Shown: positions 9,410 through 47,479, counted from the stretch's first letter. The stretch: DNA of 64,000 nt from Escherichia coli (GCF_017348835.2 NZ_CP071375.1), one strand, 5' to 3'. Numbers and translations: made by a program. Notes: generated by a model from the sequence alone, not told the origin.

Positions 9410-12400
9410 ATGAAGTTTTTACCCTATATTTTTCTTCTCTGTTGTGGTCTTTGGTCGACCATAAGTTTCGCAGACGAAGATTACATCGAATATCGTGGCA
9501 TCAGTAGTAACAACCGTGTCACACTTGATCCACTACGTCTGAGCAACAAGGAATTACGTTGGTTAGCGAGCAAAAAAAATCTTGTGATTGCAGTACACAA
9601 GTCCCAAACGGCTACGTTGTTGCATACCGATTCGCAGCAACGGGTTCGTGGTATTAATGCTGATTATTTAAATCTTTTAAAAAGAGCGTTAAATATCAAA
9701 CTAACACTCCGGGAATACGCCGATCATCAAAAAGCAATGGACGCGCTGGAAGAAGGTGAAGTCGATATAGTGTTATCACATTTAGTTGCTTCGCCGCCTC
9801 TTAATGATGACATTGCTGCAACCAAACCACTGATAATTACCTTTCCGGCGCTCGTCACCACCCTTCACGATTCAATGCGACCGCTTACCTCATCAAAACC
9901 AGTAAATATTGCTCGAGTAGCAAATTATCCCCCTGACGAGGTAATTCATCAATCATTTCCAAAAGCAACAATTATCTCTTTTACAAATTTATATCAGGCA
10001 TTAGCATCCGTCTCAGCCGGACAGAATGATTACTTTATTGGTAGTAACATCATTACCAGCAGTATGATTTCCCGCTATTTCACTCACTCCTTAAATGTAG
10101 TGAAATATTATAACTCACCGCGTCAATATAATTTTTTCTTGACCAGAAAAGAATCTGTCGTTCTTAATGAAGTACTCAATCGATTTGTTGATGCTTTGAC
10201 AAATGAAGTTCGCTATGAAGTATCACAAAATTGGCTTGATACAGGAAACCTGGCCTTTCTGAACAAACCATTAGAACTCACTGAACATGAAAAACAATGG
10301 ATTAAGCAGCATCCCGATTTAAAGGTGCTGGAAAATCCTTACTCCCCTCCCTATTCTATGACGGATGAAAATGGCTCGGTTCGGGGCGTTATGGGGGATA
10401 TTCTTAATATTATTACTTTGCAAACAGGTTTAAATTTTTCTCCGATCACCGTTTCACACAATATCCATGCTGGAACACAGCTGAATCCCGGCGGATGGGA
10501 TATATTACCCGGTGCTATTTATAGTGAAGATAGAGAAAATAATGTTTTATTTGCTGAAGCCTTCATAACAACGCCTTACGTTTTTGTCATGCAAAAAGCG
10601 CCTGACAGTGAACAAACATTAAAAAAAGGAATGAAAGTTGCCATTCCATATTATTATGAGCTGCATTCGCAATTAAAAGAGATGTATCCGGAGGTAGAGT
10701 GGATAAAAGTCGATAACGCCAGCGCTGCATTTCACAAGGTCAAGGAAGGTGAACTTGATGCTCTGGTCGCGACACAGTTAAATTCGCGTTACATGATCGA
10801 CCATTACTATCCTAATGAACTGTATCATTTTCTTATTCCCGGCGTTCCGAATGCATCGCTTTCGTTCGCTTTTCCTCGCGGAGAACCGGAACTTAAGGAT
10901 ATTATTAATAAAGCACTGAATGCAATCCCCCCAAGCGAAGTTCTGCGCCTGACCGAAAAATGGATTAAAATGCCCAATGTGACCATTGACACATGGGACC
11001 TCTATAGCGAGCAATTTTATATTGTTACGACATTATCCGTTTTATTAGTTGGCAGTAGCCTTTTATGGGGATTCTACCTGTTACGCTCAGTTCGTCGTCG
11101 TAAAGTCATTCAGGGTGATTTAGAAAACCAAATATCATTCCGGAAAGCGCTCTCGGACTCCTTACCGAATCCAACTTATGTTGTAAACTGGCAAGGTAAT
11201 GTCATTAGTCACAATAGTGCATTTGAACATTATTTCACTGCTGATTACTACAAAAATGCAATGTTACCATTAGAAAACAGTGACTCACCCTTTAAAGATG
11301 TTTTTTCTAATGCGCATGAAGTCACAGCAGAAACGAAAGAAAATCGAACAATATACACACAGGTATTTGAAATTGATAATGGCATCGAGAAAAGATGCAT
11401 TAATCACTGGCATACATTATGCAATCTGCCAGCCAGCGATCATGCTGTTTATATTTGTGGTTGGCAAGATATTACCGAGACGCGTGATTTAATTCATGCA
11501 CTCGAAGTAGAGAGAAATAAAGCGATCAATGCAACTGTCGCAAAAAGTCAGTTTCTGGCAACAATGAGTCACGAAATAAGAACACCAATAAGCTCCATTA
11601 TGGGCTTCCTGGAACTTCTGTCGGGTTCTGGTCTTAGCAAGGAGCAACGGGTGGAGGCGATTTCACTTGCCTACACCACCGGACAATCACTCCTCGGCTT
11701 AATTGGTGAAATCCTTGATGTCGACAAAATTGAATCGGGTAACTATCAACTTCAACCACAATGGGTCGATATCCCTACTTTAGTCCAGAACACTTGTTAC
11801 TCTTTCGGTGCGATTGCTGCAAGCAAATCGATCGCATTAAGTTGCAGCAGTACGTTTCCTGAACATTACCTGGTTAAGATCGACCCTCAGGCGTTTAAGC
11901 AGGTCTTATCAAATTTACTGAGTAATGCTCTCAAATTTACCACCGAGGGGGCAGTAAAAATTACGACCTCCCTGGTTCACATTGATGACAACCACGCTGT
12001 AATCAAAATGACGATTATGGATTCTGGAAGTGGATTATCGCAGGAAGAACAACAACAACTGTTTAAACGCTATAGCCAAACAAGTGCAGGTCGTCAGCAA
12101 ACAGGTTCTGGTTTAGGCTTAATGATCTGCAAAGAATTAATTAAAAACATGCAGGGTGATTTGTCATTAGAAAGTCATCCAGGCATAGGAACAACATTTA
12201 CGATCACAATCCCGGTAGAAATTATCCAACAAGTGGCGACTGTCGAGGCAAAAGCAGAACAACCCATCACACTACCTGAAAAGTTGAGCATATTAATCGC
12301 GGATGATCATCCGACCAACAGGCTATTACTCAAACGCCAGCTAAATCTATTAGGATATGATGTTGATGAAGCCACTGATGGTGTGCAAGCGCTACACAAA

Positions 12401-44570: not shown

Positions 44571-44598
44571 TTGACTCATTTTGAACTCTCCCTATAAT
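44571..44598 (+). promoter_or_regulatory. Promoter of the valU-valX-valY-lysV tRNA operon (TTGACT-16-TATAAT, GC-rich discriminator)
   Basis: cgTTGACTcattttgaactctcccTATAATgcgactccac about 20 bp upstream of the first tRNA, with an AT-rich upstream region. Confidence 0.7.
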
Positions 44599-44615: not shown

Positions 44616-44691
44616 GGGTGATTAGCTCAGCTGGGAGAGCACCTCCCTTACAAGGAGGGGGTCGGCGGTTCGATCCCGTCATCACCCACCA
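44616..44691 (+). tRNA. valU: tRNA-Val (UAC)
   Basis: GGGTGATTAGCTCAGCTGGGAGAGCACCTCCCTTACAAGGAGGGGGTCGGCGGTTCGATCCCGTCATCACCCACCA. Confidence 0.95.
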
Positions 44692-44735
44692 ACTACTTTA
44701 TGTAGTCTCCGCCGTGTAGCAAGAAATTGAGAAGT

Positions 44736-44811
44736 GGGTGATTAGCTCAGCTGGGAGAGCACCTCCCTTACAAGGAGGGGGTCGGCGGTTCGATCCCGTC
44801 ATCACCCACCA
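44736..44811 (+). tRNA. valX: tRNA-Val (UAC), copy 2
   Basis: Identical 76-nt repeat of valU. Confidence 0.95.
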
Positions 44812-44857
44812 CTTTCTCACCAGCTAAATTTCTTGTAAAAATGTGAAGTACCGAAGT

Positions 44858-44933
44858 GGGTGATTAGCTCAGCTGGGAGAGCACCTCCCTTACAAGGAGG
44901 GGGTCGGCGGTTCGATCCCGTCATCACCCACCA
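44858..44933 (+). tRNA. valY: tRNA-Val (UAC), copy 3
   Basis: Identical 76-nt repeat of valU. Confidence 0.95.
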
Positions 44934-44937
44934 CTTC

Positions 44938-45013
44938 GGGTCGTTAGCTCAGTTGGTAGAGCAGTTGACTTTTAATCAATTGGTCGCAGGTTCGAATCCT
45001 GCACGACCCACCA
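44938..45013 (+). tRNA. lysV: tRNA-Lys (UUU)
   Basis: GGGTCGTTAGCTCAGTTGGTAGAGCAGTTGACTTTTAATCAATTGGTCGCAGGTTCGAATCCTGCACGACCCACCA. Confidence 0.95.
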
Positions 45014-45016
45014 ATG

Positions 45017-45045
45017 TAAAAAAGCGCCCTAAAGGCGCTTTTTTG
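45017..45045 (+). terminator. Intrinsic terminator of the tRNA operon
   Basis: AAAAAGCGCC-ctaaa-GGCGCTTTTTTG hairpin directly after lysV. Confidence 0.85.
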
Positions 45046-45077
45046 CTATCTGCGATTTGTAAGATTGATTTTTCTTC

Positions 45078-45104
45078 TCAAGTTCCTTGTTCTTCTACCG
45101 ATAT
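45078..45104 (+). promoter_or_regulatory. Candidate sigma-28 (FliA)-type promoter upstream of the FlxA-like ORF (TCAAGTTC-N11-ACCGATAT)
   Basis: Matches the class 3 flagellar promoter consensus TAAAGTTT-N11-GCCGATAA at 6/8 plus 6/8 positions with exact 11-bp spacing, about 30 bp upstream of the ATG. Confidence 0.45.
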
Positions 45105-45132
45105 TACCTCGTACAGTGACGAGGACTGAACA

Positions 45133-45474
45133 ATGGCCACTATCTCTTCAACTTCAATTCCTTCCATACAAACACAGAGTAGTAACAGGGCATCACAAGG
45201 TAGCGATGTTGCTTCACAAATCGCGCGGATAAGTCAGCAAATCATCAAACTCACTCAACAAATTAAAGAGATTGTAGACACTAGCGGCAGTGCTGAAGAC
45301 AAGCAAAAACAGGCCGAATTGATTCAACAGCAAATCACCCTACTGGAAACACAACTGGCGCAGTTGCAGAGACAGCAGGCAGAAAAGGCGCAGGAGAAAG
45401 AGCAGCGTTTGTCTCTGAATGTATCCCTTCTAAATCCTGTTGAAAATACGACTCATATCGATATCTATATCTGA
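45133..45474 (+). CDS. Small coiled-coil protein, FlxA-like family (113 aa)
   Basis: ATG preceded by GAGGA at about 8 nt; Ser/Thr/Gln-rich N-terminus, central Q/K/E-rich heptad coiled coil (…[35 protein letters not shown]…) and C-terminal …THIDIYI, resembling FlxA-type proteins. The 3' end overlaps the yfeR stop by 10 nt. Family assignment is from memory. Confidence 0.6.
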
Positions 45475-46391
45475 TACAACGGATCCCCTTCCCGCCCAGC
45501 CATTAGCGTATTGCCCTGGTCTCGTACCACGTCCCATAACGCTTCAGCGGCGGTGGAAAGTGAACGGTTTTTCCTGCGCACCAGCATCAACTGGCGTTCC
45601 ACCACCGGCGTAATGCGCTTTACCACCAGTGGGCTACCTTCAGGCAATGGTAGCGCCAGTGCGGGAAGAATACTGATGCCGATGCCTGCGGCTACCATCG
45701 GGAACAGCGTCGCCGGATGTCCAATCTCCTGCACAATATTCGCCTGAATACCATTGCGCGCCAGCGCTGCGTCAATCAGCGGTCGGCTGCCTGACGCGTA
45801 ATCCTGCAACACCAATTTCGCTCCCTGTAATGCCTGCCAGGGTACATAATCTTCCACGGCCAAAGCGCTATCGCGATGGCAAAGCAGAAAGAAAGGCTCG
45901 GAAAGAATCGCTTCACATTGCAGATCGCCCACTGGGCCTGGATCTATGACGATGCCAAAGTCGACATCTCCCTGGCGAATACTTTCAATCACCCACTGCT
46001 GCGGACGATCGTGCAGGACAAACTGAATATCTGGATAGCGGCGATGGCTTTCAGCAATGCATTGCGGAATAAGATGCGCGGAAATGGTCTGGCTGGCAGC
46101 GACCCGAACTTTTCCGCTCAGTTGTTGCCCCATACGCCCGGTATCGCGCAACGTGCTGTTAAGTTCATCCAGCAGTCGCTCAAGACGCAAAGCCAACTGC
46201 TGCCCTGCATCTGTAAGTACCACTTCACGCGTGGTTCTGTCCAGCAGGCGAACACCTGTATGATTTTCCAGCTCCTTCACACTGTGACTTACTGCCGACT
46301 GGCTCAGGCCGATACGCTCTCCTGCACGACTAAAACTTTTCTCCTGCGCTACTGTGACGAAAACCTTTAACTGTTTTAAAGAATAATTCAT
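45465..46391 (-). CDS. yfeR: LysR-family transcriptional regulator
   Basis: 308-aa ORF with an N-terminal LysR HTH ([38 protein letters not shown]); divergent from yfeH. Confidence 0.92.
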
Positions 46392-46480
46392 CTGTTTTCT
46401 TCATGAATGGATGCAATAAATCAATTTTATTTCTCAAACTGGAAGAAGCACAATAGAACCATCGATCATCTGGAGTCTTT

Positions 46481-47479
46481 ATGAAACTTTTTCGTATCCT
46501 CGATCCTTTCACCTTAACCCTGATCACGGTGGTGTTGCTGGCCTCTTTCTTTCCGGCCAGAGGCGATTTCGTCCCCTTCTTTGAAAATCTGACCACCGCA
46601 GCTATTGCCCTGCTGTTCTTTATGCACGGCGCGAAGTTGTCGCGTGAGGCGATTATTGCTGGCGGTGGTCACTGGCGACTGCATTTGTGGGTAATGTGCA
46701 GCACCTTCGTGCTGTTTCCGATTCTGGGTGTACTGTTTGCCTGGTGGAAACCGGTAAATGTCGACCCGATGCTCTACTCCGGTTTTCTCTACTTGTGCAT
46801 TCTCCCGGCTACCGTGCAGTCTGCAATCGCCTTCACGTCAATGGCGGGCGGTAACGTCGCGGCGGCGGTTTGTTCTGCGTCGGCATCCAGCCTGCTGGGG
46901 ATTTTCCTTTCACCATTGCTGGTTGGCCTGGTGATGAATGTTCACGGTGCAGGGGGCAGCCTTGAGCAGGTCGGTAAAATTATGCTGCAACTGTTGCTGC
47001 CGTTTGTGTTGGGGCATCTTTCCCGGCCGTGGATTGGTGACTGGGTGTCGCGCAATAAAAAATGGATTGCGAAAACTGACCAGACGTCCATTCTGTTGGT
47101 GGTTTATACAGCGTTCAGCGAAGCCGTCGTTAATGGTATCTGGCATAAAGTTGGCTGGGGATCATTGCTGTTTATCGTGGTGGTCAGCTGCGTTCTTCTG
47201 GCTATCGTGATTGTAGTTAACGTCTTTATGGCACGCCGACTAGGCTTCAATAAAGCAGATGAAATTACTATCGTCTTTTGTGGTTCGAAAAAGAGTCTGG
47301 CAAATGGCATCCCGATGGCAAACATTCTGTTCCCCACATCGGTGATCGGTATGATGGTGCTGCCCCTGATGATTTTCCATCAGATCCAATTGATGGTCTG
47401 TGCGGTGCTGGCGCGGCGATACAAACGCCAGACCGAACAGTTACAGGCACAGCAGGAAAGCAGCACCGATAAAGCTTAA
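46481..47479 (+). CDS. yfeH: Bile acid:sodium symporter (BASS)-family membrane protein
   Basis: 332-aa polytopic membrane ORF. Confidence 0.9.
   Translation: MKLFRILDPFTLTLITVVLLASFFPARGDFVPFFENLTTAAIALLFFMHGAKLSREAIIAGGGHWRLHLWVMCSTFVLFPILGVLFAWWKPVNVDPMLYSGFLYLCILPATVQSAIAFTSMAGGNVAAAVCSASASSLLGIFLSPLLVGLVMNVHGAGGSLEQVGKIMLQLLLPFVLGHLSRPWIGDWVSRNKKWIAKTDQTSILLVVYTAFSEAVVNGIWHKVGWGSLLFIVVVSCVLLAIVIVVNVFMARRLGFNKADEITIVFCGSKKSLANGIPMANILFPTSVIGMMVLPLMIFHQIQLMVCAVLARRYKRQTEQLQAQQESSTDKA

Follow-up and report, generated by a model that had tools for sequence, protein, structure and literature searches.

Between the tRNA operon valU-valX-valY-lysV and the regulator gene yfeR, the chromosome of an Escherichia coli strain (GCF_017348835.2, NZ_CP071375.1) holds a small open reading frame (ORF) whose product resembles the FlxA protein and whose upstream region resembles a promoter of the flagellar sigma factor sigma-28 (FliA). 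This locus, at positions 45014-45474 of the 64,000-nucleotide (nt) stretch analysed here and referred to as the window, raises the question of whether the gene belongs to the flagellar programme or is merely carried in a slot next to a tRNA gene. Our analysis indicates that it is very probably a chromosomal gene of the FlxA family (PF14282) passed on by vertical descent, and a class 3 flagellar gene driven by sigma-28. The strongest evidence for this reading, and that which we regard as decisive, comes from comparative genomics.

Conservation of the FlxA-Like Gene Across Genera

A scan of one genome per species recovered 80 related loci from more than 20 genera, including Pseudocitrobacter, Kluyvera, Citrobacter, Enterobacter, Buttiauxella, Lelliottia, Leclercia, Cedecea, Kosakonia, Atlantibacter, Trabulsiella, Yokenella, Pluralibacter, Siccibacter, Pantoea, and others. 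Nearly all of these loci share the order gltX-valU/X/Y-lysV, followed in some by xapR-xapB-xapA and then by the flxA-like gene, which converges on yfeR-yfeH. The overlap between the flxA-like gene and yfeR is also maintained: of 70 loci, 68 show it, 42 of them at 10 nt, 25 at 4 nt, and a single one at 22 nt. Genomes that have xapRBA together with the FlxA-like gene are found in Citrobacter, in an Atlantibacter, and in several species of Enterobacter; there, the FlxA-like gene occupies the position that yfeN has in K-12. Because Citrobacter and Enterobacter carry both, the K-12 arrangement is the derived one. On this comparison, the FlxA-like gene is the ancestral syntenic neighbor of yfeR in Enterobacteriaceae and Erwiniaceae/Pantoea, and K-12-type E. 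coli put yfeN next to xapRBA instead.

The promoter is conserved along with the gene. Position weight matrices for FliA were built from the 52 motifs that Fitzgerald et al. (2014) obtained by chromatin immunoprecipitation and sequencing (ChIP-seq; PMC4183435, Table 2). The best match in the 200 nt upstream of the gene reached at least 12 bits in 73 of the 80 loci, with a median of 15.7, a level attained by 0.6% of 1418 control windows taken from the same loci (99th percentile, 11.2). In 76 of the 80 loci, the hexamer CCGATA was located within the 80 nt that precede the start codon. From 68 distinct sequences, a promoter consensus of TCAAGnTn-N11-tGCCGATAnC was derived, with an unconserved spacer; the ATG comes 25-35 nt after the end of the motif, and a Shine-Dalgarno-like motif follows the promoter in 73 of 76 cases. 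Same-position synteny, a conserved sigma-28 promoter, and the yfeR overlap across genera thus argue that the gene is not cargo of a tRNA-linked island.

Some further observations concern the history of the locus. Relative to Pseudocitrobacter (loci L006 and L007), the E. coli flxA-like gene is 85-94% and yfeR 86-87% identical in nucleotides; relative to other genera, the corresponding values are 68-74% (or no blastn alignment) and 72-75%, and the flanking genes yfeH and gltX show ~80% and ~87% wherever they were compared. The synonymous divergence (dS) of the flxA-like gene is only 0.10 against one Pseudocitrobacter locus, L006, from a metagenome-assembled genome. These values hint that the flxA-like/yfeR pair was exchanged between the E. 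coli and Pseudocitrobacter lineages. In Buttiauxella massiliensis (L032, 3465-3896), a partial yfeN-like segment with 71% amino acid identity lies between lysV and the FlxA-like gene, so yfeN and the FlxA-like gene can coexist outside E. coli. The Erwinia amylovora gene EAM_2383, annotated as flxA ('conserved hypothetical protein'), showed reduced expression in a pGpG-signaling transcriptome (PMC10802605), and its annotation suggests that the family reaches Erwinia.

The Putative Sigma-28 Promoter in the Window

In the window, exactly 11 nt lie between the elements TCAAGTTC and ACCGATAT, and the ATG comes 27 nt after the end of the motif. This site scored 15.6 bits with the matrix of all ChIP-seq sites and 15.8 bits with that of the high-confidence sites. 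It was the highest-scoring FliA match on either strand of the window and fell near the median leave-one-out score of the ChIP-seq-validated FliA sites. Markov-simulated sequence gave an expectation of 0.26-0.38 sites of such quality per window by chance, and of ~3e-4 for the 119-nt spacer between lysV and the ORF on the correct strand alone; as a motif match, the promoter exceeds chance. A scan of the same spacer for sigma-70-like sites found none.

The first base of the -10 element is polymorphic: this strain, REL606, and PapRG-06-3 have A, and WP7-S17, O157:H7, and Pseudocitrobacter have G. The form GCCGATAT occurs in O157:H7 as well as in some other E. coli. The A-initial form is found as well in the validated FliA promoters of ycgR and fliD (ACCGATAA), and other validated promoters look alike, namely those of modABC (TCAACTTC...GCCGATATT) and flgKL (TCAAGTCC...) (PMC4183435).

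Elsewhere in the window, the sequence TCAACTTCAACCACAATGGGTCGATATC at 11746-11773 (+) is identical to the intragenic evgS FliA ChIP-seq site of K-12 (PMC4183435, Table 2). It ranks among the top matches of the window, with a score that is not independent, since the site belongs to the training set. The next-best matches, at 9421 (-), 55897 (-), and 58131 (-), reached 12.8-14.3 bits with the all-site matrix (e.g., TAAAAACTTCATGTGGTTAGCCGATTTT).

Family, Sequence, and Predicted Fold of the Protein

The protein matches the Pfam family FlxA (PF14282) with an i-Evalue of 9.1e-14 and 51.8 bits, residues 15-92 aligning with model positions 4-82 of 101, and the other matches of the Pfam scan were coiled-coil noise. 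It is 43% identical to K-12 FlxA over 74 amino acids (BLASTP, E 2e-12), and both proteins end in IDIY[IV] (...GTIDIYV in K-12 FlxA, ...THIDIYI here). RefSeq/PGAP names it "FlxA-like family protein" (WP_000201414.1), and in O157:H7 Sakai the same gene is labeled flxA (ECs_3279). An exhaustive search of 1.84 billion representative proteins yielded 80 relatives at E <= 1e-3, nearly all of 105-125 amino acids, and all 99 of the aligned relatives match PF14282 at E <= 0.001.

Alignments of the family reveal a conserved start, M-T/S-T/S-I, which precedes a variable, low-complexity stretch of Ser, Thr, Gly, and Gln. Two conserved heptad-rich helices follow, the first with the pattern ASQIxRIxxQIxKLTQQLK, then a variable linker and a conserved C-terminus, G(V/I)NxP...(H/N)QIDIY(I/V). 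The ratio of nonsynonymous to synonymous substitution rates (dN/dS) was 0.08-0.19 in unsaturated pairs, as for a protein sequence that, by this comparison, is under purifying selection. AlphaFold2, run on a 99-sequence alignment, gave a mean predicted local distance difference test score (pLDDT) of 67, with residues 1-21 disordered (pLDDT <50), helices at 24-49 and 54-99 separated by a short turn, and a disordered tail. The predicted product is therefore a small soluble protein in which two antiparallel helices form a coiled-coil hairpin and both ends are disordered. Its N-terminus is polar, rich in Ser, Thr, and Gln, and has no Sec signal peptide.

Other searches added little to this picture. 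Foldseek against the PDB returned only generic helical hairpins (best E 0.19), and a profile search of PDB sequences only designed coiled coils. NCBIfam gave weak coiled-coil noise with nothing above cut-off, PADLOC no credible match to a defense system, and PHROGs only the family of K-12 FlxA, of unknown function, with a weak score (4.6e-8). An exact-sequence look-up of three E. coli variants of the protein in a protein collection found no match. A relation to flagellin, raised by a precomputed flagellin_C match on one relative (P0064), was discarded, as no flagellin-like Pfam signal was present among the 99 members.

Organization of the Locus

The features of the locus are collected in Table 1. 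The terminator hairpin behind lysV has a folding free energy (dG) of -19.1 kcal/mol (z -6.7); it was missed by one ready-made scan and was seen both by RNA folding and in a separate scan of the two strands over 45000-46600 for hairpins with a T-tract.

Table 1. Coordinates of the FlxA-like gene, its signals, and its neighbors in the window.
Feature	Position	Strand	Basis or remark
Sigma-28 (FliA) -35 element TCAAGTTC (consensus TAAAGTTT)	45078..45085	+	Sequence, position weight matrix, conserved TCAAG
Sigma-28 (FliA) -10 element ACCGATAT (consensus GCCGATAA)	45097..45104	+	Sequence, conserved CCGATA
Predicted transcription start, 7-9 nt past the -10 element	45112..45114	+	Deduced from usual FliA promoter geometry
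Shine-Dalgarno sequence GAGGA, 7 nt ahead of the ATG	45121..45125	+	Sequence
FlxA-family gene, ATG start, 113 amino acids, ends ...NTTHIDIYI	45133..45474	+	ORF, Pfam PF14282, alignments, AlphaFold2, dN/dS
Tail-to-tail overlap of 10 nt between the FlxA-like ORF and the yfeR 3' end	45465..45474		ORF coordinates
yfeR (LysR-type regulator), convergent partner gene	45465..46391	-	ORF, annotation
Allele-specific segment: promoter and nearly whole FlxA-like ORF	45060..45463		blastn breakpoints against JME66
Intrinsic terminator hairpin, A-run on one side and T-run on the other	45016..45046		Ends tRNA operon on + strand; RNA folding and hairpin-plus-T-tract scan
valU-valX-valY-lysV tRNA operon (3 tRNA-Val UAC, 1 tRNA-Lys UUU)	44616..45013	+	ARAGORN; Rfam tRNA matches
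Sigma-70-like promoter, TTGACT-16-TATAAT	44571-44598		Upstream of the tRNAs

This layout agrees with what a sequence-only reading of the window had described: a tRNA operon and its terminator right before the ORF, a 113-codon frame with a good ribosome-binding site and a HIDIYI end, a final 10 nt shared with the convergent yfeR, and a sigma-28-type promoter with exact N11 spacing, whose score proved to be like that of validated FliA sites. Its proposal of a FlxA-like product, which called for a Pfam search, was likewise upheld by the family match, the identity to K-12 FlxA, and the PGAP name given above.

Taken with the conservation, the arrangement suggests a monocistronic late (class 3) flagellar gene that would be insulated from the tRNA operon by the lysV terminator. 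Sigma-28 RNA polymerase would read it from TCAAGTTC-N11-ACCGATAT, beginning the transcript near 45112, and GAGGA would serve as the ribosome-binding site. Expression would depend on FlhDC and then on FliA, and also on the export of FlgM, which frees FliA once the hook is complete. In evolutionary terms, the FlxA protein encoded in the K-12 prophage Qin is a mobile paralogue of this chromosomal gene.

Distribution and Alleles Within E. coli

Of 5426 complete E. coli genomes, 1316 contain the allele-specific segment, always on the chromosome; among these carriers are REL606, BL21, HS, ATCC 11303, and O157:H7. At least 80% of the segment is found in 1307 genomes, and likewise 1307 have at least 80% of a query that begins at the end of valY, takes in lysV and the FlxA-like gene, and reaches into yfeR, which suggests that carriers generally hold a contiguous lysV-flxA-like-yfeR order. 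No xap genes were seen at any carrier locus inspected. In K-12-type genomes, homology halts at 45059 and restarts at 45464 (blastn against JME66), and nothing homologous to 45060-45463 lies between. Their slot of ~4.4 kb contains instead an RtT repeat, xapR, a DUF1427 gene, xapB, xapA, and yfeN. The sequence-only reading had placed xapR-xapB-xapA-yfeN at this position in K-12, and the K-12-type genomes inspected are indeed so arranged and lack the FlxA-like ORF. It had also spoken of a strain-variable, tRNA-adjacent slot; the absence of the gene from many E. coli fits that description, but the slot is not a variable island, given that the gene keeps the same yfeR neighbor across genera.

In O157:H7 strains 8368 (L088, 1006-1604) and Sakai (L090, 10445-11371), yfeR is a pseudogene with an internal stop, and the FlxA-like gene is intact with the consensus GCCGATAT.

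The interval between lysV and yfeR varies in other ways. HH97 carries a third allele, with a 267-nt hypothetical ORF upstream of a remnant of the FlxA-like gene and no xap genes. The number of tRNA-Val copies is two in JME66 and HH97 and three in the window. The RtT-sRNA-like repeat is a copy of the 3' part of lysV with its terminator (JME66, L002 7115-7240; PapRG-06-3, L004 3115-3240); K-12-type genomes and some carriers have it directly behind lysV, and in one variant it is inserted ahead of the promoter. It is absent from the window, where Rfam found tRNAs only and no RtT or other RNA in the spacer. This duplication of a tRNA 3' end belongs to the K-12-type allele, not to that of the window.

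Expression of FlxA Genes

For the K-12 paralogue, FliA dependence has been demonstrated: a FliA ChIP-seq site lies ~22 nt before the flxA ATG, and deleting fliA lowers expression from 280 to 2 (PMC4183435, Table 2). In other published data sets, K-12 flxA tracks the flagellar regulon. A regulatory link between YfeR and FlxA, considered on account of a paper on LysR-type regulators, was set aside, since that paper contains only the co-variation of flxA with the flagellar regulon.

As for the chromosomal gene, Dong and Schellhorn (2009) listed "Z3672, unknown, EDL933-specific" among 11 genes whose expression changed in an rpoS mutant in exponential phase, as measured by microarray (PMC2907692, Table 1). 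In this mutant, Z3672 fell 4-fold, together with motAB (5- and 6-fold) and yhjH (8-fold), both FliA targets. In the EDL933 numbering, gltX is Z3665, yfeH Z3675, and lig Z3677 (PMC2907692, supplement), so Z3672 lies between gltX and yfeH. The genes annotated between lysV and yfeH in O157:H7 Sakai are ECs_3279, the FlxA-like gene, and the yfeR pseudogene ECs_3280, and comparison with the near-identical window allele indicates that the FlxA-like gene is the sole DNA in the gltX-yfeH interval that K-12 does not have. From this position and strain specificity, we infer that Z3672 is the FlxA-like gene. The data on Z3672 would then indicate expression of the gene and its co-variation with class 3 genes, which is suggestive of FliA dependence but does not show it directly.

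Predicted Transcript Ends and the Overlap With yfeR

The scan over 45000-46600 found no hairpin plus T-tract on the + strand from the FlxA-like ORF through the whole of yfeR. For yfeR itself, on the - strand, a convincing terminator is first reached at the lysV hairpin, read in reverse, the only other candidate being a weak one at 45309. From its structure, the lysV terminator is likely bidirectional. With such a layout, transcripts of the FlxA-like gene would run antisense into yfeR, and those of yfeR would run antisense across the whole FlxA-like gene, which would sit inside a long 3' untranslated region of yfeR. Given the conserved overlap, reciprocal transcriptional interference between the two genes is conceivable.

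Possible Roles and Alternative Explanations

Several observations weigh against a conserved, sigma-28-dependent flagellar gene. The promoter agrees with the consensus at 12 of 16 positions (6 of 8 in the -35 element), and in this strain the -10 element opens with A rather than the consensus G. Close to 76% of complete E. coli genomes are without the gene. In CUVET18-789, an insertion sequence of the IS3 family, IS1203, splits the ORF after ~80 codons (L003, 6205-7859), and HH97 (L086, 2985-3200) keeps a degraded, 86%-identical remnant in which a poly-T tract comes after the promoter (ACCGGAATT) and the opening codons of the ORF; this absence, the insertion, and the remnant together imply that the gene is dispensable in E. 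coli. E. coli B, which is not known to have functional flagella, keeps the gene intact. A search of the literature for transcripts, transcription start sites, or FliA binding of the FlxA-like gene in any strain found none. The identity of Z3672 is drawn from gene numbering and strain specificity and not from a record. Finally, the predicted fold is without a significant structural relative, so that structure points to no function.

The imperfect promoter match would be explained if the motif were not a working promoter at all, the ORF being silent, transcribed by read-through from the tRNAs, or served by an unrecognized sigma-70 or sigma-S promoter. Such an account could draw on the many FliA ChIP sites of K-12 that drive no detectable transcript (PMC4183435) and on the reported RpoS dependence of Z3672 (PMC2907692), yet we consider it very improbable. 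Across more than 20 genera, 73-76 of 80 loci preserve both the motif and its distance to the ATG, with spacer and flanks free to vary, a strong terminator separates the tRNAs from a gene whose spacer holds no sigma-70-like site, the ACCGATAA promoters of ycgR and fliD are strongly bound by FliA (PMC4183435), and Z3672 shifts with motAB and yhjH when RpoS is scarce (PMC2907692). Even smaller is the chance that the gene is horizontally acquired cargo or a prophage remnant in a variable slot, comparable to K-12 flxA in Qin. The position beside tRNA-Lys, a presence in only 24% of complete E. coli genomes, and the unusual closeness to Pseudocitrobacter noted above are points in favor of cargo, and K-12 flxA is itself prophage-borne, occurring in 1199 of the 5426 E. 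coli genomes and in one phage record, of an induced phage. However, Kluyvera, Citrobacter, Enterobacter, Buttiauxella, Cedecea, Kosakonia, Atlantibacter, Pantoea, and others have the gene at the same position and with the yfeR overlap, xapRBA and the gene stand together in Citrobacter and Enterobacter, no integrase, att duplication, or phage gene was found at the locus, the allele-specific DNA measures only 404 bp and holds the FlxA-like gene alone, and the protein has no match in 50,697 phage records. A different possibility is that selection acts at the RNA level, with antisense interference coupling motility to YfeR/YfeH, which would be compatible with a protein function as well. The overlap of the two 3' ends, which spans 4-22 nt and is present in 68 of 70 loci, and the distribution of terminators on the two strands would suit it, and we still judge it improbable, since the protein is under purifying selection with conserved motifs at both termini, the prophage paralogue keeps the protein and its FliA promoter with no yfeR partner, and O157:H7 retains the gene despite its yfeR pseudogene. 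The last two cases imply that the protein is kept without a working yfeR.

A flagellar gene under sigma-28 thus remains the preferred reading, and what its product does is a separate matter. The role that seems most likely, though we lean to it only weakly, is that of a dispensable accessory of late flagellar assembly. FlgK, FliD, FliC, FlgL, and FlgM are late flagellar export substrates. K-12 FlxA was detected in the E. coli exoproteome, rising together with these very proteins, FlgM included (PMC6391000, Table 1), and in our preferred, though tentative, guess the window protein might be exported like FlgM as a late substrate of the flagellar type III apparatus. A second observation in line with export is that FlxA protein and mRNA change in opposite senses at 42 C, a temperature at which FlgM is secreted inefficiently (PMC6551532). 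Its disordered N-terminus and the lack of a Sec signal peptide are as in export substrates but not specific to them. Two points speak against export. Cytoplasmic CheY appears in the same exoproteome list, beside FlxA (PMC6391000), so that lysis combined with induction of the regulon could account for FlxA there. Moreover, the text consulted on the 42 C response does not give which of the two, FlxA protein or mRNA, rises (PMC6551532). Equally doubtful, and to be set against export, is a cytoplasmic protein, for instance a small coiled coil that acts on a chemotaxis or late flagellar component as its adaptor or regulator. A helical hairpin is common to many cytoplasmic adaptors, and Foldseek gave a non-significant match to the FliJ-like protein CdsO; the rise of K-12 FlxA in the exoproteome, the disordered N-terminus, and the lack of a known partner fit such a protein less well. 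Bolder, and rather unlikely, is the idea that the FlxA family as a whole is an overlooked late flagellar export substrate, secreted after hook completion to act outside the cell or as a FlgM-like, secretion-gated signal, and that the ancient overlap with yfeR couples flagellar status to YfeR/YfeH by way of convergent transcription.

Comparison With Known Flagellar Genes

The closest known relative is K-12 FlxA (b1566, cryptic prophage Qin), which has 110 amino acids against 113, 43% identity in the core, a similarly polar, low-complexity N-terminus, and the same IDIY[IV] end. The sigma-28 promoters are placed alike, ~22 nt before the ATG in K-12 flxA and 27 nt in the window gene, and each gene occurs in ~22-24% of complete E. 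coli genomes. They differ in that K-12 flxA is prophage cargo between relBE-ydfV and dicC with a demonstrated FliA dependence (PMC4183435), whereas the window gene is chromosomal and syntenic, overlaps yfeR, and has a FliA dependence deduced from its promoter.

The class 3 genes ycgR, yhjH/pdeH, ynjH, and yjcZ resemble the window gene in being single genes with a sigma-28 promoter, in their co-expression with motility, and in being unneeded for building the flagellum; ycgR and fliD also share its -10 variant ACCGATA. In contrast to ycgR and pdeH, which have roles related to cyclic di-GMP, the window gene encodes a predicted coiled-coil hairpin with no enzymatic or binding domain. With FlgM and the late type III export substrates, it would share class 3 expression, small size, the lack of a Sec signal peptide, and a disordered N-terminus, and its K-12 paralogue was found in the medium alongside FlgM (PMC6391000). 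It has no sequence or fold similarity to FlgM, and neither FliA binding nor a chaperone is known for it.

Significance

Since 1997, flxA has reportedly counted as a gene that depends on FliA and plays no part in motility, and K-12 flxA is said to have been found dispensable for motility by Ide and Kutsukake (1997). This dispensability, together with the prophage location of the K-12 copy, may be why the family has received little attention. The gene described here is already annotated in ~1300 complete E. coli genomes, and the founder of its family is a known FliA target. What the comparison of loci adds is the deep conservation of a putative sigma-28 promoter, the fixed overlap with yfeR, and a chromosomal FlxA lineage that K-12 has lost. 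Published maps of the flagellar regulon leave this lineage out, since K-12, the source of the published FliA ChIP-seq and RNA-seq data, does not carry it.

An old chromosomal lineage that has kept its sigma-28 promoter and a fixed yfeR overlap argues for a real, selected link to the flagellar program. Carriers such as HS, O157:H7, and E. coli B offer a direct route to FliA dependence, export, and redundancy with the prophage copy, a redundancy that could have masked a phenotype.

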